Origin: a virus | Lineage: Duplodnaviria > Caudoviricetes | Strand: one strand, 5' to 3' | IMG/VR virus record: IMGVR_UViG_3300023292_000011 | Span: 1 to 56,888 of that record | Length of the DNA: 56,888 nucleotides | Part shown: piece after piece, positions 15,646 to 54,212 of the stretch | Layout of the letters: each line of letters begins with the position of its first letter | Position numbering within the stretch: the stretch's first letter is position 1 | Translations under genes and position numbers: made by a program | The notes under the pieces: model-generated | Told to the model about the DNA's origin: nothing | Seen by the model: the letters and a program-made list of their open reading frames with translations, nothing else | Databases searched by the model: none

Positions 15646-18600
15646 ATGGCTTCATCAAGATATGTATATGATAAATTAATGGCTAATGAACCTGCATTTA
15701 AAGCATTAACAGAACAGGAAAGACAGACTGCTGCTGATGATATAGCAAACCAAAGAACTACACAAGAAGAGTCTCCTGAACCTGTACAGGGTGGTTTAAG
15801 TAGTATTCAAAGAAATCAATCTTTGCCTTCTTTAAGTGAATCTATATCTTTACCAGAGTTATCACAACCTCAACAGCCACAACAACAGCAAGTACAACCT
15901 GATAATGAAACAAACTCTATATTTATGAATGGTCAGAAGACTGTATTTGGCGGTGATGAAACTGCTGTAAAGAATGTTATTGATTACGATGATACAATAG
16001 ACTTTGTGGATAAGTTCAATCCATTAAAAGAGAAAGGTATAGCTCCTGAAAAGGCCGCTGTATCTGCTTTTGCTTATGGAGCAATAAAGAATAAGATACA
16101 GAATGTTTCTCTCAAAAAACTTTTACAGACAGGTAGAGAAACTTTCAAACAGAGACTTAAAACATTAGTTCCAACTGCAACAGATAATGTAGTTGATAAT
16201 ATGACCAACAATGCTTTTAGAAGAGTTGCAAAGGGTGATGTGACATTGAATGATTTTTTTGTAGAAGCAGGACAGACTAACTCTGTAAATGCTCCTACAA
16301 TGGAATCAGTACAAGTAGATGCTTCACAAGGCCCTTCTGCATCAACAGCAAGAGAAGGTAAAGATATTGCTGAGTTCATATATAAGAATGTAAAAGCAGA
16401 TGAAAGTGATAGAAAGTTTGCTTCTAAAAACTATTATGAATACTTGATGTTCCAAGATGAAAACAATCTTATTAATGAAAATGAAAAAGTAAAGCTTGAT
16501 TACATAAATACTAAAATGGATATGTCACTTGATATAGCAGATGATAATGAATATGAAATATCAAAGAAGAGTTTGATGAATGATATATTCAATATTATAC
16601 CTGAGAAGTCTATGCAATCTTTTGAATATCGTGGTGATGTAAGAGAGAGTAAAATTGAACAAGTTTCTGATAATGTTGAAGTTAAGGATGAAGAATCGTT
16701 AGATACTGACCAATATTTTGATGTCAATAATATGGATCAATATGATGATGCTACAATAGCACAAGCAATGTCAGTTCTTGGCAAGAGAGCATCTTCTATA
16801 CTTGGGGATTTTCTTCCTGCTAAAATAGGTTCTACGATAAAAGGTAAAGATGTAAAACTTGAAGATGTTGGAGCGATAGATAAATTTATTGCCCGTAATA
16901 TGAAAGAGGGAGCTACAACAAGAACTCTTACACCTGAAGAAAGAAAGAAAGTAGTTATACCATTACCTTATGTAGATGATATAACTCTTGGAACAGTAGA
17001 AGATGCTGCTGAAAGTCTTGCTTTTTCTTTATCTAATTTACTTGTAACAGGTAGTGCAGCTTTAGTTGGTTCAGCAATAGGAGCAGGAGAAGGTTCTCTT
17101 GTGAGTCCTGGTGTTGGAACTGCTATTGGAGCAGGTCTTGGCCTTGTAGGTGGTATTGCTTCTACTAAGAGACAAATAGAAAATGATTTTCTTAGAGATA
17201 TGAGAGCAAGATTTTTAGAAGCAAATCCTGGTCCTATAACTCCTGAGTTAAAAGAAAAATGGAATAAAACTAAAAAACTTTTAGATAAACACGCTGAGTT
17301 TAGAGGTTGGTGGGAAGCAGGGCCTGAAACAGTTGGAAATCTTTTAACAATGGGAATGTTCAGACTTCCTGTTGGAAAAGCCATAGGAGCGATTCCTGGA
17401 CTTAAAAGTGATACAGCTAAACTTATAGGCAGTGCATTAATAAAAACAAGCTTTGCACAGAGTACAGAATTACTTGGAGAAACAGTAACAGAAGTAAAGC
17501 AATCTGAAGATGATGCAAAACTTGGATTAATAAAGAAGCCTCTTACATATAATGAAGCTTTCAAAAGAGTTGCACCAGGAACTATAATTCAAGGATTACT
17601 TTCAGCAAGCGGCGGTAAGGTTACTACAGAATTAGAATCTAAAATAAAAAAATACTTTCCTAAAAAAGATAAAAATAAAACTAATCAAACTGATAATGAA
17701 AAACTTGACAAACTACAAGCACAAGAAGCTGACAGAGGTGTAGAAGTAGACCTTACTGAACAAACTAAGCCAGAAGTAATAGCAGAAGATATTGATAATC
17801 TTGATGCTTTATTTGCAGAAGCAGAAGCAACATTTGAGCCTGCTGAAACAGAAACTAAACCTGAAGTAGAACCTGTTGTTGACAAAGTGCAACAAAAACC
17901 TGTAATTGAACCTATACAAGAAAAAATACAATCAGAAACAAAAATAGAATCTGTTAAAGAAGATATTAATGTAAAAGAAAAACCTCTTGTTGAAACAGTT
18001 AAAGACAAAGTTGAACCTAAGAAAAAAGAAATTATAAAACCTAATGAAAAACAAATAAAAATTATTAATATATTGAAGAAAACAACATCATTATTTAAAC
18101 AAAATTTTTTATCCTCAACACCAGAAGCTATAAAAAAATATATTGATAGTTTAAAAGATTCATTAATGGTTGGCGAAGAATTAAATATTAAAAATGTTGG
18201 AGTAAATACTGATAAATTAAAAACTTTTATGAGTAATCATATTAAAAAAATTATTAAAAAAACTGGTGTAAGTGATGGCGATATTAATATTATATATAAA
18301 AGACTTACAGATGAAATAAATAAAGCAGGAAATGAACTTGTTCCTATAAAAAATTTATTAGATAATGTTATAAAAAAAGCGTCTAATGAAATAAGAACTG
18401 GAACAGTACAAGAAAACATAAATAGAGAAGCAAGTTTAAGTTTAAAACAAAATAAAAAAAAATTAAAATATTACCAAGGAGAAATTGACGCTAATTTAAA
18501 TAGAACTAAAGAATATAAAAAAGAAATAAAAGAATATAAAAAAAGAAAAGAAAATTATAAAGGGCAATGGGATAGTTCAATAAAATTAAGAGAAAGATTT

Positions 18601-21600
18601 ATAAAAGAAAACAAAAATAGATTAGTTGAATATAAAGAAAAAATAGAAACATTTAATAAAAAAATTAAAGAATTAAATATTGAAACAGGTAAAATTATAG
18701 GGAAAACTAATTTTGATATAGAATCTAAAAAAGAAGTAGAACCAGTACATGAAACAGCGATTTCAAGAGCAATGAAGTTAGCAAAAGAAAAGAAAGCTAA
18801 CAAGAAACCTCTCGTTGAAGCTGTGAAGACTAAAGTAGAAGCTAAAAAACAAAAGACTATAATCACACCACAAAAACAAGAAGTACAGCCAGAAGCTAAA
18901 ATAGAGCCTGTTAAAGTTAAACCTACACTCAAAGAAACAGTTAAGCAGAAAGTGGCAGTAAAGAAAGCTGATAAATATACTTTTGATATTCCAAAAGATA
19001 AGTTTTCAATATATAAAGTAAACACTCCTAAAGGTGTTAAGTATGCTGTGAAATTGCCAAAAGAATTATCACAAAGTTTCAGTGATCCGTTTTATGATAC
19101 TATTGAAATTGCTGAAAAAGAACAAACATTTGAAATAGAAAAAGAAAAGCGTAATATTGCTTTTAATAAAAAACAAGAAATAATTAAAACAGAAGAAACA
19201 ATAAAGAAAAAAGAACAAGAAAATGTAGATGGCTTTGATAAAGATATGCCTAAAATGCGCAGAGGTCAAGTTATAAAAGCATTAAATAAAATGTTTAATT
19301 TTGATGGCAAACTAATGACAAGAAAAGAAAAGGTTAGAGAACTTGTAAATGACAATGCTAAAATAAGCGTAGAAGAGGTTGATAAAATTCAGCCTATGAC
19401 AAGGTTGGCATCTAACAGAGCGAATCAAAGAGAGCAAGACGCTCATGAACAGAGAATAAAAGATTCAGGTAAGAAAAAAATATATTATGTAGGTGGATAT
19501 GATTTAGGTAAGACTGCTTATGACTATGCTAATCATCTGATGGAGAAAAAAACATCTGTTGGTGATATGAGTGAAAAAAACGTTACATCAAAAGGTAATT
19601 TAATAGCAGGTGAATACTATGGTAAGAACTTTCCTGAAAGTTTTATATCTAAATTAAAAGAACTGTTATCAGGTGTTCTTCCTAAAACTCCAAAGAAAAA
19701 AGAAGATAAAATAATAATTCCAGGACTTGCTAAAGTTATTGATATAGATGTTACTCCAATAAAGAAAAAAATTAAAAAGTCAAATAATCCTATTGAAGAA
19801 ATAATAATTCCTTTTGCAGATAAAACAAGAGAAAAAATTCAATATTCAGGAGTGTTCTTCGATAAAAAGAATCAAAGAATACAAGCAACCAATGGTGGCA
19901 TTTTCATTACTGTAGAAGCAGATGTAAAAGAAGGTGGCATTTTTGAAATAGATAAAAATAATAAAAAACTAACAGGTAAAAAATTAAATGCTGAGTTCCC
20001 TTATGCATCAGAAATAATTGACAATTCAAGCAATCAAAAATATAAACAAATGAAAACAGACGATCTTTTAGATAAAGCAAGAGGTATGTCTGCTGTTGAA
20101 AAACTTTTACAAAATAAAGACGATGTGTTAGCTAAAATAAAACAAGGTGATTTAGAACTTCGTATAAATCCAAATAATTTGCAAAAGGCATTAGAAACTT
20201 TTAAAAAGTTAGGAATAGATGAAATAGAAGTTTCAATTAAAGAAGCCTATGAACCTATGAGAATAAGAGACGCTAACAATAAAAAAAATATAGCTTTTAT
20301 AATGCCTATTAGAAATTCATTCGCTAAGGTTACTACTTCATTTGACTTGAATAATCCTACTGGTAAACAAGACACTAAGCTACAAGCAGTTGACAAAGAT
20401 ATAGATGATACTTGGAATAAGTTAAATAAAGAAAATAATAAAAGATTAGGTATGAACCCTTTGCCTTCATTAAAAGCAACAGTGCTTACAACAAAACTTG
20501 TTTATAATTATGCTAAAAAAGGAATGTATATATTTGAAGATATAATTAATGATTTAAAAAATAAATTTGGAGTTGTGTCAGAAAAAATAAAAAATAATAT
20601 CAAAAATATTTTAAGTAAAAGTCCTATAAAAACTAAAAGTGGAACTAAAATAAAAAGATATAAAAATATAGTAGGAAAAGAAATTGGTGGTAAAATTTAT
20701 GTTCATAAAAAATATGCAGATAAAGTAATTCCAAAACAATTATTAAATAATGCTAAAAAAATATTAAATGAATCAAATCCAGAATTTAAATATAACGCTA
20801 TATCTTATGATAAAAAAACTGATACAGTAAGATTTGATGAAGCCCCTGATTTTAACTCTGCAACTGAACCAACTATAGGTAATTATATTTCAATTACACA
20901 AAATAAAGAAGTTTCAAAAGGAAGCAGTAATTCTATATGGCATCATAAGTGGTTATGGGTAACTGATGATTATAACGGATTTAATGTTTATGACAGTAAA
21001 AATAGAAGCAGATATTGGCTTTCTAAAATAAATGGAAAAGCAAGTGGTTCTAAAACAATATTTGAACAACAATTAAAAGCTAATGACGAAAATAAAGAAA
21101 ATGAAATTTTTACAGATACTTTTTCAGAACAAGCAGGAAAAACAGCGAGACCATGGAAAGTAACAAAAACATACAAAGCGGCTTTAGAAATAATAAAAGA
21201 TGGAGATAATGTTCTTGATTATGGTTCAGGACCATTTCAAAAAGTTAAATCCTCTGTAAAGTCTAAAGGTGGAAAATATTTTGCATTTGATAGATATGGG
21301 AATATAGGAGATATTTCTTTTTTAAAAAACAAAGATGTTGTAATGGGAAGTAATGTTTTAAATACTGCTGTATATGCAGATAATCCAACAAAAGCATATC
21401 ATGAAGCACTTAACGAAATGGCAAGTGCATTAAAACCAAATGGAACATTAGTTGTAAATATGCCTTCGTCTGGCCCACAGGCAACATGGATGAATTCTAT
21501 AGGTCTTGAAAATGATTTAAAAAATATTTTTAAAAATGTAAAAAGAAAAGGTGAAGTTGTTTTTGCATCTGGATTAAAAGAAAAATCAATAAGAAATATT

Positions 21601-24600
21601 AATATTGACAAAGAAATAGAAAATGCTTGGAAAGAAGTTAAGAGGGCACAAGGTAAAATACTTGGCGGTTTAGTACCAATGAACGCACCGCTTGTTAAAG
21701 CTTCTGTTAAGCTCATTAAAGCTTGCTTTAAAAAAGGTATATATAAACTACAAGACATAACTAAAAGTGTTCTCAGTAGAGTTACAGCAGATAAAAGAAA
21801 CGATTATATAAAAGGATTAAAGCAAGCAATGAATCAGCTCATAGATGATCCTAACACTGATACATCTAAAGTTGGTATGACTAAGGATGAAGTTAATGCT
21901 TATGATCCTGATAAAGTTGTAGAGCCTATTAAGATTGATACAAAAGAAATAAAGAAATCTGAAGTTAAGAAAACTGAAAAGATTGAAACTAAACCTACTG
22001 GAAATATAGAAGATAACAGAGTGTTTAAGTCTCTTGAAAACTCAAGACAGCTTTCTAAAATAAAAAGAAAAATAACTGCAAAGAAAATTTTTAAATCATT
22101 AAAAAGAAACTTAATTGATGAATCAGGCAATTTAAAAGATAAACTACTTGAAACTCCATTAGGTAAAAAAGCAGTAAAATATCAAGAGTTAATGGCAGGT
22201 GCTACTTCAAAGGCTGAACTTCAAATAGATAAAGCTCACAACGATATATATAAAGATCTTACGAAAAAAGAAAAGACAAATTATTTAGATACTTATGTTT
22301 TTGCTAAAAGGTCTATTGAAATATTGAAAAGAAAACCTAATTTTACAGTACAAGCAAATGCTTCCATAGCAGAACTTGAAGCTTTAATAGATGAAATACC
22401 AGATAATGTTATGAAGAAAATAGAGTCTAAGGCAAGTATTTATTGGAAGACACTTGATAGTCAATTAAATCAATTAAAAGAAGCAGGACTTATTACAGAA
22501 AAAGGAATTAAAAGATTAAAAGAAACAGGTGAATATTATTCTCCAAGAGAAGTTCTTGATTATATAGATCCTGACGGAACTTTTTATGATGGCAATGGAA
22601 AAATAACTATTCCTGATAGTGGTATAAAAAAACTTACTGATGAAGGTAGTTTAAGACTTGTAGAAACTGACACAGCATATTTGCTCACATCTGTAATATC
22701 AAGAACTCAAGCAAGAATATCTAAAAATAAAGCAAATGTAGCATTATATGAAATGGCAAAATCTAATCCTGATAACGAAATAGTTACTATTGCTAAAAAA
22801 GATGAAGACCTTCAACCTGGATTTGAAAAGATAAGTGTTATGATAGATGGTAATAAAGAACAATTAATTATGCCATCTGACTTAGCTGTTGAGTGGGTTA
22901 AAAGTAATCCTATATTAAATTCTTTTCAAGCCGAAGTATTAAGTTTAGCAACAGGAACTAAAATTTTAAAAACAATGGCTACTGGTATAAATCCTGAATT
23001 TGTAATTACAAACATGCCAAGAGATATTGCACATATATTTTTATCCACAAATGAATTTTCTCCAACATCTCCTATTGCCGCTGCTCAAATGGCAAAAAGA
23101 CTTTCAGAAGTATTTTCAGATGCAATAAAAAGAAAAGGTCGCTATATTGATTTTATAAACGAAGGTGGTGGAATGGGTTTTCTTACACATCAAGGTAGAA
23201 TTTTTGAAAGAAATATAAACTCAGAAATATCTAAAATCCAAGATGTATTAGGCTATTCAGGAGAAACTTCAGAAATACTTACAAGATTAGCATTAAGAGA
23301 ACAAGCACTTATAAATATTGCAAAAGAAAAAGGTGTTAAAATTTCAGAGCTTTCATTAGAAGATAGAGAAGAAGCAACATGGATAGCAAGAGGCTATCTT
23401 GATTTCTCTCAAGGTGGTAGAATGGCGAAAGCTTTAAACAGTGGCCTTCCATATATAAATGCAAGGATTCAAGGCACAAGAGGTATTTTTAGGGCTTTTA
23501 AAGAAAGACCTGTTCAAACTACTTATAAAGCGGTACAGATTGGAATTGTAAGTTCTCTTCTTTATATGTTGAATTTAGGAATAGATGAAGATGAATATGA
23601 TAAAATATCTCCTTCTGATAAAAGAAATTATTTCAATATATTAGTACCTAACAGCGATTATAAAGATAAAGAAGGAAACAGTAGAAAAGTTTATGTAAAA
23701 ATAGCAAAAGACCAAGGACAAAGAACTATAAGTTATATATTTGAAGCATTGACCGCGAAAGCGTTAGGAAAAGAAATTGATGTAAACCAAATAGTTGAAA
23801 CAATTAAAGACCTTTCACCATATATACCTTCTCAAGATTTACCTCCATTCGTAGATGCTTTTATTTCTTATGGTTCAAATATAGATTTTTGGAGAGGTCA
23901 ACCTATTTGGAAAAAAGAAAAAGTAGAAGCAGGTGCAGAACAAACTTCTTATACACATCCTTTTTTCAGAGCTATAGGAGATAAAACAAACTTGTCTCCT
24001 AATAGATTAAAAGTTGCTCTTGAACAAGTTTTCACATCAGGAAATATTTATACATCAGCAGCAGATTTAGCTTGGAATAAACTTTTCGGGAAAGACAAAA
24101 TAGATGATACTGTAATTCAGAATAAAATATTAAACTTTCCTTTTATACGCAAATTTATGAAAAAGACTGATTCTTATAATAAATATCAAAAGAAAATAGA
24201 TGAAGCTAAAATTAAAGCTAATACAAAAAAATATAGAAACACACTTAAATTAGATGATATGATTCAAGATTATTTCAATGAAAGAAAAACTAAAGAAGAG
24301 GTAAATACTTTTATAGAAAACCAAGAGACTCCTTTAGAAACAAAAAGATTGAAAAGAAGGTTTTCTGATAGTGAAAAGTTAAAAGATATTCCTGATAGAA
24401 GATGGTGGTTTGGAATTAAAGAACTCTCTCCTGAAATAAAAGCACAACAGTTTTGGTTAAGATGGTCTCAATCAAATGATGCTGAAAAGAAACAGTTAAA
24501 AGAAACATTAGATAAATTTCCTGGAATGAAGTCTAAAAGGTTTCTTAAAGCTTTAAACGCAAGAACTGAAAGAGATGAAAAATTTGAACAGGCTTCTAAA

Positions 24601-24648
24601 AAATCTGGTAGAATTAGAACAACAAGGCGAAGAGTGAAAAGAAGATAA
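15646..24648 (+). CDS. 3000-aa internal virion/ejection polyvalent protein with beta-clamp-like, SAM-methyltransferase and LPD38-like regions
   Basis: Gly-rich hydrophobic segment near aa 460-505; QATNG..EFP..INP..FIMPIR; VLDYGSG..SNVLN; NPEFVITNMPRD, LDFSQGG and PYINARIQG C-terminal motifs. Confidence 0.75.
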   Translation: MASSRYVYDKLMANEPAFKALTEQERQTAADDIANQRTTQEESPEPVQGGLSSIQRNQSLPSLSESISLPELSQPQQPQQQQVQPDNETNSIFMNGQKTVFGGDETAVKNVIDYDDTIDFVDKFNPLKEKGIAPEKAAVSAFAYGAIKNKIQNVSLKKLLQTGRETFKQRLKTLVPTATDNVVDNMTNNAFRRVAKGDVTLNDFFVEAGQTNSVNAPTMESVQVDASQGPSASTAREGKDIAEFIYKNVKADESDRKFASKNYYEYLMFQDENNLINENEKVKLDYINTKMDMSLDIADDNEYEISKKSLMNDIFNIIPEKSMQSFEYRGDVRESKIEQVSDNVEVKDEESLDTDQYFDVNNMDQYDDATIAQAMSVLGKRASSILGDFLPAKIGSTIKGKDVKLEDVGAIDKFIARNMKEGATTRTLTPEERKKVVIPLPYVDDITLGTVEDAAESLAFSLSNLLVTGSAALVGSAIGAGEGSLVSPGVGTAIGAGLGLVGGIASTKRQIENDFLRDMRARFLEANPGPITPELKEKWNKTKKLLDKHAEFRGWWEAGPETVGNLLTMGMFRLPVGKAIGAIPGLKSDTAKLIGSALIKTSFAQSTELLGETVTEVKQSEDDAKLGLIKKPLTYNEAFKRVAPGTIIQGLLSASGGKVTTELESKIKKYFPKKDKNKTNQTDNEKLDKLQAQEADRGVEVDLTEQTKPEVIAEDIDNLDALFAEAEATFEPAETETKPEVEPVVDKVQQKPVIEPIQEKIQSETKIESVKEDINVKEKPLVETVKDKVEPKKKEIIKPNEKQIKIINILKKTTSLFKQNFLSSTPEAIKKYIDSLKDSLMVGEELNIKNVGVNTDKLKTFMSNHIKKIIKKTGVSDGDINIIYKRLTDEINKAGNELVPIKNLLDNVIKKASNEIRTGTVQENINREASLSLKQNKKKLKYYQGEIDANLNRTKEYKKEIKEYKKRKENYKGQWDSSIKLRERFIKENKNRLVEYKEKIETFNKKIKELNIETGKIIGKTNFDIESKKEVEPVHETAISRAMKLAKEKKANKKPLVEAVKTKVEAKKQKTIITPQKQEVQPEAKIEPVKVKPTLKETVKQKVAVKKADKYTFDIPKDKFSIYKVNTPKGVKYAVKLPKELSQSFSDPFYDTIEIAEKEQTFEIEKEKRNIAFNKKQEIIKTEETIKKKEQENVDGFDKDMPKMRRGQVIKALNKMFNFDGKLMTRKEKVRELVNDNAKISVEEVDKIQPMTRLASNRANQREQDAHEQRIKDSGKKKIYYVGGYDLGKTAYDYANHLMEKKTSVGDMSEKNVTSKGNLIAGEYYGKNFPESFISKLKELLSGVLPKTPKKKEDKIIIPGLAKVIDIDVTPIKKKIKKSNNPIEEIIIPFADKTREKIQYSGVFFDKKNQRIQATNGGIFITVEADVKEGGIFEIDKNNKKLTGKKLNAEFPYASEIIDNSSNQKYKQMKTDDLLDKARGMSAVEKLLQNKDDVLAKIKQGDLELRINPNNLQKALETFKKLGIDEIEVSIKEAYEPMRIRDANNKKNIAFIMPIRNSFAKVTTSFDLNNPTGKQDTKLQAVDKDIDDTWNKLNKENNKRLGMNPLPSLKATVLTTKLVYNYAKKGMYIFEDIINDLKNKFGVVSEKIKNNIKNILSKSPIKTKSGTKIKRYKNIVGKEIGGKIYVHKKYADKVIPKQLLNNAKKILNESNPEFKYNAISYDKKTDTVRFDEAPDFNSATEPTIGNYISITQNKEVSKGSSNSIWHHKWLWVTDDYNGFNVYDSKNRSRYWLSKINGKASGSKTIFEQQLKANDENKENEIFTDTFSEQAGKTARPWKVTKTYKAALEIIKDGDNVLDYGSGPFQKVKSSVKSKGGKYFAFDRYGNIGDISFLKNKDVVMGSNVLNTAVYADNPTKAYHEALNEMASALKPNGTLVVNMPSSGPQATWMNSIGLENDLKNIFKNVKRKGEVVFASGLKEKSIRNINIDKEIENAWKEVKRAQGKILGGLVPMNAPLVKASVKLIKACFKKGIYKLQDITKSVLSRVTADKRNDYIKGLKQAMNQLIDDPNTDTSKVGMTKDEVNAYDPDKVVEPIKIDTKEIKKSEVKKTEKIETKPTGNIEDNRVFKSLENSRQLSKIKRKITAKKIFKSLKRNLIDESGNLKDKLLETPLGKKAVKYQELMAGATSKAELQIDKAHNDIYKDLTKKEKTNYLDTYVFAKRSIEILKRKPNFTVQANASIAELEALIDEIPDNVMKKIESKASIYWKTLDSQLNQLKEAGLITEKGIKRLKETGEYYSPREVLDYIDPDGTFYDGNGKITIPDSGIKKLTDEGSLRLVETDTAYLLTSVISRTQARISKNKANVALYEMAKSNPDNEIVTIAKKDEDLQPGFEKISVMIDGNKEQLIMPSDLAVEWVKSNPILNSFQAEVLSLATGTKILKTMATGINPEFVITNMPRDIAHIFLSTNEFSPTSPIAAAQMAKRLSEVFSDAIKRKGRYIDFINEGGGMGFLTHQGRIFERNINSEISKIQDVLGYSGETSEILTRLALREQALINIAKEKGVKISELSLEDREEATWIARGYLDFSQGGRMAKALNSGLPYINARIQGTRGIFRAFKERPVQTTYKAVQIGIVSSLLYMLNLGIDEDEYDKISPSDKRNYFNILVPNSDYKDKEGNSRKVYVKIAKDQGQRTISYIFEALTAKALGKEIDVNQIVETIKDLSPYIPSQDLPPFVDAFISYGSNIDFWRGQPIWKKEKVEAGAEQTSYTHPFFRAIGDKTNLSPNRLKVALEQVFTSGNIYTSAADLAWNKLFGKDKIDDTVIQNKILNFPFIRKFMKKTDSYNKYQKKIDEAKIKANTKKYRNTLKLDDMIQDYFNERKTKEEVNTFIENQETPLETKRLKRRFSDSEKLKDIPDRRWWFGIKELSPEIKAQQFWLRWSQSNDAEKKQLKETLDKFPGMKSKRFLKALNARTERDEKFEQASKKSGRIRTTRRRVKRR

Positions 24649-49453: not shown

Positions 49454-49535
49454 GGTTTGCCTTCTTTCTTTATCCAGGACTTGAGACCTGAACTGTCCTT
49501 TAATATCGGATGTATAGTCCGATACCTCTCAGGGA

Positions 49536-49787
49536 TTAATCAAATATTCTCATTTCCCATGATTCTTTATTTGGATATATCAATTTAAAAGCTTTATTTG
49601 TTTTAAACTCTGCAATCATGTTATTTGCTATTTGCTTTAACTCTTCGTCTGTCTTTGCTGAAAAACTTTTACCTTGTTGCCTACCTTCATAAACTAAAAT
49701 AGCATCCTTTGTTATATCTCCTATTACGACTCCTCTTACTGATTCAATCATTTTTTTCCTCTTTCGTTCCTTAATATTAAATACCAT
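49536..49787 (-). CDS. Hypothetical protein (start probably 49751)
   Basis: GAGG RBS before the second ATG. Confidence 0.5.
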   Translation of the reverse strand: MVFNIKERKRKKMIESVRGVVIGDITKDAILVYEGRQQGKSFSAKTDEELKQIANNMIAEFKTNKAFKLIYPNKESWEMRIFD

Positions 49788-50311: not shown

Positions 50312-50352
50312 AAAAAAACCCGATATAACATCAATTAAGACATTATATCGGG
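50312..50352 (-). terminator. Terminator of the early operon
   Basis: Minus strand CCCGATATAA..TTATATCGGG then T7. Confidence 0.8.
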
Positions 50353-50407
50353 CTAACCGAATAATTTGATTTAAGGTTCAAATTAGCAAAAACCTTTTAA
50401 TTGTTTT

Positions 50408-50977
50408 TTAGAAACTTGCAAGCTTAATTTCTTGCCAGTCTCCATTTTCAGTCCAGTCTTCCAGAACTATCCAGCCGACGTTAGAAAGTTTGACGGCTTT
50501 AAAAAACCATGAATCACCATCACCACACTGGTTTTCACCAAGCTCCAAGGTTGCTCCTTTTTTTGCTTGTGTTAAGGCCTCAAAGAAGGCCTGAAATCCC
50601 TCTTTTACTTCTTCTTCGGTTGGGATGTCATCCTCTATGTGATTAGACCCATCGGTATTAGCGGAAGGGATATAAGAAACACCATCCAAAATATTCCAAG
50701 CACAACCACCACCTGCACTTGTTTCGTGATTCCAAGGTGCTGGGGCAGTTTGTATCCTTGAAATAAGTTTTTTTTCTGAAAGGATCTGAATATCTCCAAG
50801 ATTGAACTGTGGGTTGAAATCTTTGTGAGAGGATTTAAATGTTTCCACAAAGAAGTTTTTTAACTCCTTGTGGATTTTCACGGTCGTTAAACCGCTTTTG
50901 TAAACTATCTTTGTTAAAAAATCATTTACTTGCCTGGTCTCTTGGTTTCTTCTTGCTTTTAATGTTGTAAAGTTCAT
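50408..50977 (-). CDS. Hypothetical early protein
   Basis: AAGGGAG RBS; 189 aa. Confidence 0.7.
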   Translation of the reverse strand: MNFTTLKARRNQETRQVNDFLTKIVYKSGLTTVKIHKELKNFFVETFKSSHKDFNPQFNLGDIQILSEKKLISRIQTAPAPWNHETSAGGGCAWNILDGVSYIPSANTDGSNHIEDDIPTEEEVKEGFQAFFEALTQAKKGATLELGENQCGDGDSWFFKAVKLSNVGWIVLEDWTENGDWQEIKLASF

Positions 50978-51050
50978 ATTAATTCTCCCTTTTTCGATTC
51001 TTATCCAGAACCGCCCACAAGAATTTAAGAGCTTGTTTTCTCTTTGGTTT

Positions 51051-51107
51051 CCTATTAGCCCAATTAAGGGCTTTCGACCGATTACCGTTCGGCTCTCTTC
51101 AAACAGG
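51051..51107 (-). ncRNA. Hammerhead ribozyme candidate (type I, U3 variant)
   Basis: CCUGU-UUGAAGA-GAGCCGA(ACGGUAA)UCGGUC-GAAA-GCCC(UUAAUU)GGGC-UA-AUAGG. Confidence 0.7.
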
Positions 51108-51509
51108 TTAGTTAATTAAGAAGTCAACACCATGATTTTTAGCGGTTTGGATTATTTTATGCGCCATAAAAGCAAACCAAGAATTTACCATATTATCTTT
51201 TTGTTTTTCGGTATAGCTTTTATCGTCTGTGAAGTTATGGAGCTTTTTGCAGGTTTCGAAAATCTGGTAATAAGTATAATCAAGATTAAAAGCTGTAGGA
51301 AGGCCGGAAAGCCATTCCTTTAAAACATTTTCAATGCTGCCATATCTTTTAAGATGTGCTGGAAAAACATATTCAGTGCAAAAGCGATCTTTTAAAGTTT
51401 GAAGTTTTTCGGTTTCTGTCATGTTTTTTGGATATGTTTCTATATCGTCCATACACTCAAAAATATATGTTTCCATTCTGCCATTAAATTCTTTTGTATT
51501 TGTTTTCAT
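51108..51509 (-). CDS. Hypothetical early protein
   Basis: GGGAGGT RBS; EWLSGLP motif. Confidence 0.7.
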   Translation of the reverse strand: MKTNTKEFNGRMETYIFECMDDIETYPKNMTETEKLQTLKDRFCTEYVFPAHLKRYGSIENVLKEWLSGLPTAFNLDYTYYQIFETCKKLHNFTDDKSYTEKQKDNMVNSWFAFMAHKIIQTAKNHGVDFLIN

Positions 51510-51634
51510 AATTAATACCTCCCAGTATTGTTATTATTGTTTAACCTGTCTCATCAGTGCCAAGCAGTAGTTTAATTTCGTCAATATGCGCTATTTCTAC
51601 AATAAAATTGTAGATGTATAATCCTATTCTGCTT

Positions 51635-52042: not shown

Positions 52043-52106
52043 GCAGGGCTTGAGACCTGCTAAGCCCTTTAATAAGAGAGCAATTAAACCCTCTTATCTC
52101 TCAGGA
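52043..52106 (-). ncRNA. Twister ribozyme candidate (P5-type permutation)
   Basis: CCU-GAGAG-AUAAGAG..CUCUUAU-UAA-AGG-GC-UUA-GCAGG(UCUCAAGC)CCUGC. Confidence 0.75.
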
Positions 52107-52107
52107 T

Positions 52108-52677
52108 TTAAGCAGCTTCCCAGAGTTCTTCTATTTGCCAACCTTCAAGCGTTCCACCTGTTTTTATTTTATCGTCCTTTGTGTAAACATCATAATAAAT
52201 ATTATTTAAGCTATAATCTTTTACTATATCTTCAATAATATTTAATTGATTTCGTTTAATATTATCGTTTATTCTTACTGTTAAATCTCCATCTGATATG
52301 TGAACTGTAATTATTTGTTCGTTGTACCAAGTATCAATATCTATTATTCTGTGATCATCACCAGGTATTGACACCATAGAACCATCGGAAAATATAAATC
52401 CATGATCGCCAGCATGACCAGTAAAACAATTATAATCTTCTTTTCTTTTTTCAAGGTATTCGTTAAAATTTGAATCTTCTATAAATGCAGAATCTGATAA
52501 AGGGCTTTCTTCTTCTTCTTTATACCATGTACAAAACTCTTCAAAATTACAACATACGATTTCAAAAGCTTTTTGTTCTGCTATTGTTTCAAAACTTTCT
52601 GACCATGTTATAAATTCTTGTTCTAAGTTTTCGTATCTCTCAGTTATATCTTTTATTTCTTCTTGTAAAAAACTCAT
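52108..52677 (-). CDS. Acidic hypothetical early protein
   Basis: AAGGAGGT RBS; GFIFSDG..DHR motif. Confidence 0.7.
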   Translation of the reverse strand: MSFLQEEIKDITERYENLEQEFITWSESFETIAEQKAFEIVCCNFEEFCTWYKEEEESPLSDSAFIEDSNFNEYLEKRKEDYNCFTGHAGDHGFIFSDGSMVSIPGDDHRIIDIDTWYNEQIITVHISDGDLTVRINDNIKRNQLNIIEDIVKDYSLNNIYYDVYTKDDKIKTGGTLEGWQIEELWEAA

Positions 52678-52943: not shown

Positions 52944-52971
52944 ATTATACTCCTATATCGTATCATGTCAA
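52944..52971 (-). promoter_or_regulatory. Strong early sigma70 promoter
   Basis: Minus strand TTGACA-16-TATAAT with AT-rich UP-like region. Confidence 0.85.
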
Positions 52972-53079
52972 TGGGTTATTTAATTATTTTTCATTTTATT
53001 TATATTTAATTTGTACTTGCCAGTAATACCAGTACATCCAAGCGTTATATATATACATCTATATTATATATAACTCATA

Positions 53080-53120
53080 GGTAACGGTAAGTAACGGTGG
53101 GTAACGATTGGTAACGGTAG
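53080..53120. repeat. Four GTAACG repeats at ~10-11 bp spacing
   Basis: GGTAACGGTAA GTAACGGTGG GTAACGATTG GTAACGGTAG. Confidence 0.75.
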
Positions 53121-54000
53121 TGGTCATGTGTATATTGTCACTTTTATAGCCATATTGCCAATAAATTCTCATAATGATACACTTTGTTTATATATATCTC
53201 CATATCTCATATATCCCCTGAACCAGTTCAATATAATATATATCGTCTGCAATATATCATCATATCCCTACATCATCACACAGTAGCTTTACAGGCTCTT
53301 ATATATAGTATTATATATATATCTATATATAGGAAGATATCGGCATCATGCTTCAATCACGATTCATTGTGTTGCTATATGCTGTCATCATTATTATATA
53401 TATCATTATTCAATCATTGCAGAAATATATCAGCATATCCACATATAGAGCTATATCATACAGGAGAATAGCATATACCACCCCGATATATATTATCATC
53501 ATGATCATTATATATAGAGATAGATGTTTATATTATGTTGTTTGCCTGGTCATTATGTTAGATCATGTTTTTTCAAGGATTTATTCCTGGCCATGGTAGG
53601 GTAGGGGATGGATTTCAGAATTTATTTATTAGATACTATATACATCCCTATGATTATATATGGGGTAAATTACTCGTAGGAATAGGCCCCTATGATTATA
53701 TATTACCTTATATTTTCTGTAGAATGATGTTTCATAAATCATTATCCGCCATGTTAGTTGTCATATTAATCATTATTCATAAAAAATATAAAAAAATTAA
53801 AAAAAATAAAGCATTGAAAACCGTTGATATCACTTAGATATAAAAATTATTTTAAAAAATTAAAAAAAAAATTAAAATAAAATGAATGGAATGAATGTAA
53901 AAACAGTCTAACAAGTAAAGCTTGGCACAAGCTTGAGAATGTTCACAGGCTCACGCTCTCAGCTTGCTGAAGCACTTGTTAGTTTTAGAAATAATCTCAC

Positions 54001-54036
54001 TTAGTTAGTTAATAACTTACTTAGTTAGTTAGTTAG
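54001..54036. repeat. (TTAG)n short tandem repeats
   Basis: TTAGTTAGTT..TTAGTTAGTTAGTTAG. Confidence 0.7.
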
Positions 54037-54081
54037 CGTGTAAGACAAATAAACAAATAGTATATATAAACAAAATAATAG

Positions 54082-54110
54082 TTGTATGAAATTAAAAAAG
54101 TAAGTATAAT
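54082..54110 (+). promoter_or_regulatory. Sigma70 promoter for a candidate sRNA
   Basis: TTGTAT-17-TATAAT. Confidence 0.6.
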
Positions 54111-54116
54111 TAAATA

Positions 54117-54212
54117 GACATTAAAAATCTCCAATCGAATATTGCTAACTCTCTCAGGTTACGGTGTTCTATCTCCCTTAAAGGTATGTGTTTAGCGGCA
54201 CATGCCTTTTTT
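54117..54212 (+). ncRNA. Candidate ~95-nt small RNA with CU-rich anti-SD segments
   Basis: Bounded by promoter and terminator; no credible ORF. Confidence 0.45.
54180..54212 (+). terminator. Intrinsic terminator
   Basis: AAAGGTATGTG / CACATGCCTTT then T-tract. Confidence 0.8.

Follow-up and report, generated by a model that had tools for sequence, protein, structure and literature searches.

A minus-strand operon and its intergenic elements

The window, meaning the whole stretch of viral DNA that was analysed (an entire virus record, 56,888 bases, 32.5% G+C), encodes a terminase, a portal or adaptor protein, a major head protein, a primase-helicase and one tRNA-Gln. Its plus strand also carries a single 3000-aa ORF (15646-24648), for which the sole PHROG match covers residues 1655-1794 and belongs to a family of unknown function. 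The locus described here is a minus-strand operon with five ORFs between a promoter-like site and a terminator-like hairpin, in which a type I hammerhead occupies an intergenic position on the sense strand. The main features, in the order of the minus strand, are the following.

52944-52971, minus strand: sigma-70-type promoter-like site, 12 of 12 consensus matches, before the first ORF of the operon
52044-52105, minus strand: Twister-P5 ribozyme in the operon (Rfam RF02684, 42.6 bits, gathering score 37.6); an ORF ends at 52108
51108-51509, minus strand: upstream ORF of 133 aa (phrog_11100, function unknown), with its stop codon directly against stem I of the hammerhead
51051-51107, minus strand: type I hammerhead, from the 5' strand to the 3' strand of stem I (found by sequence, descriptor and covariance model R1)
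50408-50977, minus strand: downstream ORF of 189 aa, without a family; a structured leader of 73 nt (50978-51050) precedes it
50317-50354, minus strand: intrinsic terminator-like hairpin, 16 pairs and a T run, z = -3.98, after the downstream ORF
49475-49533, minus strand: second Twister-P5 ribozyme, past the terminator in the next gene block (Rfam RF02684, 45.8 bits, gathering score 37.6); an ORF ends at 49536

No nucleotide separates the hammerhead from the stop codon of the 133-aa ORF, and each twister begins 2 nt after a stop codon. Together, the two twisters and the hammerhead punctuate the gene blocks of the minus strand with self-cleaving RNAs of mixed class. Excerpted accounts describe hammerheads flanking single prophage genes, and twisters sharing gene neighbourhoods with hammerheads (PMC3088659, PMC6765202). 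Two ribozyme classes at equivalent post-stop places would fit phages that punctuate their polycistronic RNAs with interchangeable self-cleaving modules.

Several other observations were made around the operon. The 73-nt leader (50978-51050, minus strand) folds far better than its shuffles (z = -3.98, 0 of 200), and its fold pairs a Shine-Dalgarno-like GGGAGA with a UUCUU stretch upstream of it. A second hammerhead was considered in the 125-nt gap at 51510-51634 (minus strand), where CUGAUGAG and an upstream CGAAA are both present; since only 18 nt separate the two, no hammerhead topology fits and the resemblance is probably due to chance. Upstream of the operon promoter lies a 1.2-kb non-coding, very A+T-rich stretch (52990-54200) with GGTAACGNT-like units every 10 bases at 53080-53118, an exact 16-nt repeat at 53646 and 53688, and numerous ATATAT-rich repeats. 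This stretch may be an origin or a regulatory region.

The whole 2.8-kb stretch studied was found in only one sequencing run, labelled salt lake metagenome, which shares all of the sampled 31-letter words with it (share 1.00); the run may be the source of the window DNA, so this agreement is not independent. Contigs from four other salt-lake runs leave 51022-51484 uncovered, and no RNA run was among the listed runs holding the stretch. The salt-lake contigs of other runs diverge from the window at 49487, 50041, 51021 and 51485. One of these points falls inside the twister at 49475-49533, and the other sequence continues beyond it as an apparent different version of the twister, so that gene-plus-ribozyme modules seem to have been exchanged.

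Architecture of the hammerhead

The original prediction had placed a type I hammerhead with a U at core position 3 on the minus strand from 51107 to 51051, and every one of its elements was found where it had been located. They are given below together with a predicted tertiary contact.

51107-51103 with 51055-51051, minus strand: stem I, 5 bp, CCUGU with AUAGG, from the sequence
51096-51102, minus strand: core strand U3 U4 G5 A6 A7 G8 A9, with U3 at 51102 and G8 at 51097
51076-51095, minus strand: stem II hairpin, 20 nt, 6 bp with one bulged G, closing pair G10.1-C11.1, 7-nt loop at 51082-51088
51073-51075, minus strand: G12 A13 A14, from the sequence; GAA in 13 of 13 rows of the family alignment
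51057-51072, minus strand: stem III hairpin, A15.1-U16.1 and GCCC/GGGC, 6-nt loop
51056, minus strand: A17 of the triplet CUA; predicted scissile bond 51056/51055, from hammerhead numbering
51046-51048, minus strand: ACC in the 3' tail, predicted 3-bp pseudoknot with GGU of loop II at 51084-51086

The connectivity is that of a type I hammerhead, with stem I open and three helices of 5, 6 (one bulge) and 5 bp. The core bases U4 G5 A6 N7 G8 A9 are present as U G A A G A at 51101-51096, G12 A13 A14 lie at 51075-51073, the A15.1-U16.1 pair joins 51072 to 51057, and position 17 is an A (51056) and hence not G. All of the strictly conserved hammerhead bases are therefore in place except C3. The minus strand has U at that position (plus-strand 51102), which removes the C3-G8 Watson-Crick pair and makes the element a core variant by the strict consensus.

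At 46% G+C the element stands 14 points above the genome (32%). In the nearest-neighbour model stem III is nearly always formed (pair probabilities 0.93-1.0) and stem II seldom (0.05-0.21). The hammerhead fold, at -15.3 kcal/mol, lies 2 kcal/mol above the minimum free energy fold (-17.3 kcal/mol), a competitor that pairs the UUGA and UCGA core strands with each other.

How readily such a motif arises by chance depends strongly on the quality of the stems. A type I descriptor allowing at most one core mismatch found this site alone on either strand of the 56,888-base record. Stems as good as 5/6/5 occurred in 15 of 1598 dinucleotide shuffles of the record (0.9%) and relaxed 4/4/4 stems in 355 of the 1598 (22%), while a smaller first set gave no match to the observed motif in 100 shuffles. 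Looser type II and type III descriptors matched the window several times, in coding regions only, and this noise again indicates that stem quality matters. Core-letter patterns with fixed spacing, run against public collections, returned 45 matches (30 viral, 11 metagenome and 4 genome), none of which had all three stems. Patterns combining core and stems gave no match in one viral and one metagenome scan, and two patterns based on the twisters gave nothing or one random match.

No Rfam hammerhead model (RF00163, RF00008 and others) reports the site at E <= 10, and the window copy does not reach the gathering threshold for hammerheads. This silence weighs little, since RF00163 (Hammerhead_1) gives a relative with a fully canonical core, in the phage NatCom_6392, only 15.8 bits and so also leaves it below the gathering score of 34. 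Type I connectivity and core consensus are common to RF00163 and the phage copies described below, and the model fails to reach this phage subgroup.

A reading of the element as a variant twister was also considered. The hammerhead segment GGUCGAAAGCCCU (51067-51079, minus strand) agrees with the conserved 3' motif of the twisters, GGUCUCAAGCCCU (52046-52058, minus strand), in 11 of 13 places. This is likely a coincidence: 174 of 5000 shuffles did as well, no twister model matches the site, and the reading was rejected.

Relatives in published phages, covariation and a predicted pseudoknot

Relatives of the element were not easily reached through its neighbourhood. The 2.8-kb stretch had no relative among phage records by blastn, and protein-seeded scans for viral contigs with both flanking genes came back empty. 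A relative identified through the terminase was 100% identical and proved to be a fragment without the hammerhead region, and protein searches turned up no more than a truncated copy at 96% and, on an ENA contig, one at 61%. In phi92, RcCWillis and Av-05 the gene homologous to the upstream one is followed by a gap of 12-59 nt, too short for a ribozyme. Neither a twister-P5 nor a type II hammerhead was found in the two phages with terminases at 32% identity (L002 and L003) or in the fragment L001.

The ribozyme itself proved to be the better query. When the 68-nt site was compared with 50,697 phage records by a permissive blastn, one match emerged (E 3e-3), in the Christensenellales phage NatCom_6392. 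This intergenic locus contains a canonical type I hammerhead (core CUGACGA, triplet GUC, stem I CCCGC/GCGGG), and copy 1 of the phage is identical to the window in 18 of the 20 bases of stem II, the bulge and the 7-nt loop included. A covariance model, R1, was then built from three copies (the window, NatCom_6392 and IMGVR 15666929). In whole phage records it made 16 matches at 26-81 bits, 13 of them distinct including the window, which leaves 12 relatives, in eight records: two Christensenellales phages, two IMG/VR records, CL131, FP_Brigit, SSIP-1 and Castelnaud. CL131 is an Aphanizomenon phage, FP_Brigit a Faecalibacterium phage, SSIP-1 a Salisaeta phage and Castelnaud a Flavonifractor phage. 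Members outside the training set scored 26-47 bits. The window copy scored 80.8 bits (51049-51109), partly by construction as a training row, and the next-best match in the window, at 13.6 bits, lies inside an ORF. A ninth record, Caulobacter phage S2B, gave two weaker matches (18.3 bits, E about 3e-4). The copies in published phages are located as follows.

L054, 1501-1558; L058, 1083-1147; L059, 522-580, 1090-1148 and 1501-1562: type I pseudoknot hammerheads
L074, 1078-1141 and 1501-1562; L072, 1501-1559; L071, 1501-1559; L076, 1501-1560: type I pseudoknot hammerheads
L073, 1214-1276; L081, 919-983 and 1501-1567: type I hammerheads

Each related phage carries one to three copies, and each copy lies 0-41 nt after a gene. 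None has a ribozyme annotation; they fall in unannotated DNA or, in part, under 'hypothetical protein' calls. This type I subgroup is thus unannotated in published phage genomes, and it lies well below the threshold of the Rfam type I model. The flanking proteins are unrelated between the window and the related phages, and the ribozyme behaves as an independent module.

The likeness extends to details of the fold. The copies of NatCom_6392 (PV036419.1) and IMGVR 15666929 (PV036454.1), Christensenellales phages, are type I hammerheads between small genes. These and the related copies of SSIP-1, FP_Brigit, CL131, Castelnaud and S2B share the topology of the window and its place just after a gene, and the 13 copies examined for it share a pseudoknot between loop II and the 3' tail. 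In the closest copies stem II repeats that of the window, 20 nt long with a bulged purine and a loop of 7 nt. Against these likenesses, the relatives have C3 where the window has U3; their stem I is mostly CCCGC/GCGGG and their triplet GUC in all but one, whereas the window has an A/U-rich stem I and CUA; and their hosts and habitats differ from those of the window.

Across the 13 distinct sequences, 94.7% of 190 cells hold standard pairs and 11 of the 15 pairs have changed on both sides, in an alignment that was fitted to the model and so leans toward the structure. None of 500 shuffles matched any of the covariation measures, and slid controls were 33-45% paired. A MAFFT alignment of three sequences gave 44 of 45 cells paired and double changes at 6 of 15 pairs; its sole unpaired cell sits in a relative, so that the window copy has no broken pair. 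Between the window and its relatives most pairs of stems I and III have changed and all are still paired. Stem III covaries at three of its four modelled pairs, and stem II covaries across the family as well.

A loop II triplet is complementary to a triplet 1-2 nt past stem I in all 13 copies examined, the distinct sequences of the eight records. The pairing is GGC:GCC in nine copies, GGU:ACC in the window and in CL131 copy 2, CGC:GCG in SSIP-1 copy 2 and GGGC:GCCC in Castelnaud. In the window this predicted pseudoknot (51086-51084 with 51046-51048), which is 3 bp only and was read from the sequence alone, has been kept by a compensatory change (GGU:ACC against GGC:GCC). No convincing pseudoknot of at least 4 bp was found. 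Contacts of this kind are described in about 40% of hammerheads and as needed for fast cleavage, according to excerpts of the source (PMC3088659). The compensated pseudoknot argues, with moderate weight, for functional selection through most of the divergence; the weight is moderate since this is a single event in which both changes run from G/C to A/U. Together with the intact, compensated stems it shows long selection for the fold.

The canonical-core homologues, the covariation in three stems and the conserved pseudoknot strongly support the predicted type I hammerhead with U3. The element is with near certainty a hammerhead ribozyme by descent. As judged from sequence comparison, it is a member of a pseudoknot-stabilised type I group that lies between small genes of diverse phages.

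Position 3 and the activity of the window copy

The U at position 3 sets the window copy apart from its family. The original prediction had proposed that relatives be inspected for C at this position (plus-strand 51102), and C was found in all 14 related copies, the 12 aligned and the two of S2B, each with a CUGAYGA core. U3 is therefore a derived state peculiar to the window copy, and the invariance of C3 while the stems vary freely argues that the change is costly. The other variable core positions also differ: N7 and H17 are both A in the window, most relatives have C or U there, and position 17, otherwise C in the relatives, is A in copy 2 of the Aphanizomenon phage CL131. High salt alone does not call for U3, given that the copies in the phage of the halophile Salisaeta are canonical, with C3.

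Published work bears on the likely effect, as far as the excerpts drawn on here go. The C3-G8 pair belongs to the active fold (PMC3884650), and in a type III hammerhead that was mutagenised comprehensively every single mutant of the CUGA turn showed low activity, with rescue only for the swap from C:G to G:C (PMC9901934). Some activity is documented in natural core variants as well, for example A6C and U3-A8 covariation (PMC3088659, PMC7151607), the latter including examples in Penelope-like elements (PMC3088659, PMC4209133). In the saltern core variant that was assayed, a rate of 0.13 per min required Mg2+ at about 300 mM (PMC3088659). Our literature search returned no paper on 'U3-G8' with 'hammerhead'. 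The invariance of C3 and the published mutagenesis point to reduced activity of the window copy, which probably cuts slowly or not at all.

How the element would act can be laid out from the operon and from established hammerhead chemistry. The layout suggests that the operon is transcribed from the promoter-like site (52971-52944) to the terminator (50354-50317), and right after the stop of the 133-aa ORF the RNA would fold into three helices with the loop II-tail pseudoknot, a fold backed by the covariation. In hammerheads G12 activates the 2'-OH of nucleotide 17, and the 2'-OH of G8 protonates the leaving group. By the same chemistry G12 (51075) would activate the 2'-OH of A17 (51056), that of G8 (51097) would protonate the leaving group, and cleavage would fall between 51056 and 51055. 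The 3' end of the upstream mRNA would then carry a 2',3'-cyclic phosphate, with stems II and III as a cap, and the mRNA of the 189-aa ORF would start with a 5'-OH. Since U3 turns the C3-G8 Watson-Crick pair into a U·G wobble, the window copy would be expected to cleave far more slowly than the relatives with C3, and the outcome would be partial processing of the polycistronic RNA.

Our main reading, that the element is a slow but real cutter, has a probability of about one half. Stems that are intact and compensated, a pseudoknot that has been kept and a G+C content exceeding that of the genome by 14 points speak for continued constraint; that C3 never varies in the relatives speaks for a defect in the window copy. 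The C3-G8 pair positions the general acid in the hammerhead, and the window copy amounts to a natural experiment on this pair, with an intact and compensated scaffold and 14 C3 relatives for comparison.

A serious though somewhat doubtful alternative is that the element is a recently inactivated relic, in which a C-to-U change at position 3 abolished useful catalysis and which serves at most as a stable 3' structure for the upstream message. The conservation of C3 in 14 of 14 relatives and the low activity described for single CUGA-turn mutants (PMC9901934) are in keeping with such a loss. C-to-U is also the type of change most common where a genome drifts to so low a G+C content (32%), N7 and H17 are A as well, and the distant relatives of the upstream gene, with their gaps of 12-59 nt, do without any ribozyme. 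Several features of the locus speak against decay. The window copy has no broken stem pair and its pseudoknot is compensated, so any loss of function must be very recent, and its G+C content has not come down to that of the genome. The two same-strand twisters nearby are intact, and ribozyme processing therefore appears to be in use in this phage.

It is possible, though unlikely, that the U3·G8 wobble is a selected setting and not decay, giving a slow or ion-dependent hammerhead in place of a fast one. The original prediction had inferred either a deliberately partial cutter or a decaying ribozyme, and no sign of a deliberate attenuation emerged from the analysis. If the setting is selected, the proportion of joined to separated messages for the 133-aa and 189-aa proteins would depend on Mg2+ or salt in the host of a salt-lake phage, and a natural hammerhead would for the first time be shown to work with U·G in place of C3-G8 without an insertion. 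The nearest comparisons, in the portions of the sources consulted, are the saltern hammerheads HHmeta and HHphage (Perreault et al. 2011, PMC3088659; PMC7151607), natural hammerheads from saline viral DNA whose alteration lies at position 3 or next to it. Like the window, HHphage is written with U3 and G8, but both saltern variants carry a two-base insertion (2a, 2b) beside position 3 that the window does not have (PMC7151607). HHmeta, which has C3, is the saltern variant described as assayed (PMC3088659). The U3-A8 covariants share U3 with the window (PMC3088659, PMC4209133); in them the change of G8 to A keeps a Watson-Crick pair, whereas the window retains G8 and forms a U·G wobble (PMC3088659). 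The A6C hammerhead of phage Bcep176 is, like the window copy, an intergenic single-base core variant, and it is described as having low activity with Mg2+ and as functional with Mn2+; the position and the contact affected differ from those in the window (PMC3088659, PMC7151607).

Less probable still is that U3 is not the real or majority base of the phage and reflects an assembly or sequencing error or a minor allele in a population with C3. The data searched hold one assembled sequence of the window copy, the other salt-lake runs leave 51022-51484 uncovered and all relatives have C, so the base could be an outlier of this kind. The run holding the whole 2.8-kb stretch nevertheless agrees with the window (share 1.00, perhaps as its source and then not independently), and there is no positive sign of error. 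That the element is a chance look-alike, or another structured element such as mRNA-stabilising hairpins that happens to match 10 of the 11 core bases, is hardly credible: relaxed descriptors do match 22% of shuffled genomes, loose type II and III descriptors do match coding regions and Rfam is silent at the site, but equally good motifs are rare in shuffles, none of the 45 core-pattern matches elsewhere has three stems, and the element has canonical hammerheads as homologues, three covarying helices and the pseudoknot.

One further match to R1, in Nostoc phage Nsp-JY18 (L080, 1501-1564, minus strand; 18.7 bits), was left out of the counts because it has CAA where GAA is needed. Its core strand reads CUGAAGA and its stem II is good; it could be a decayed copy or a further core variant.
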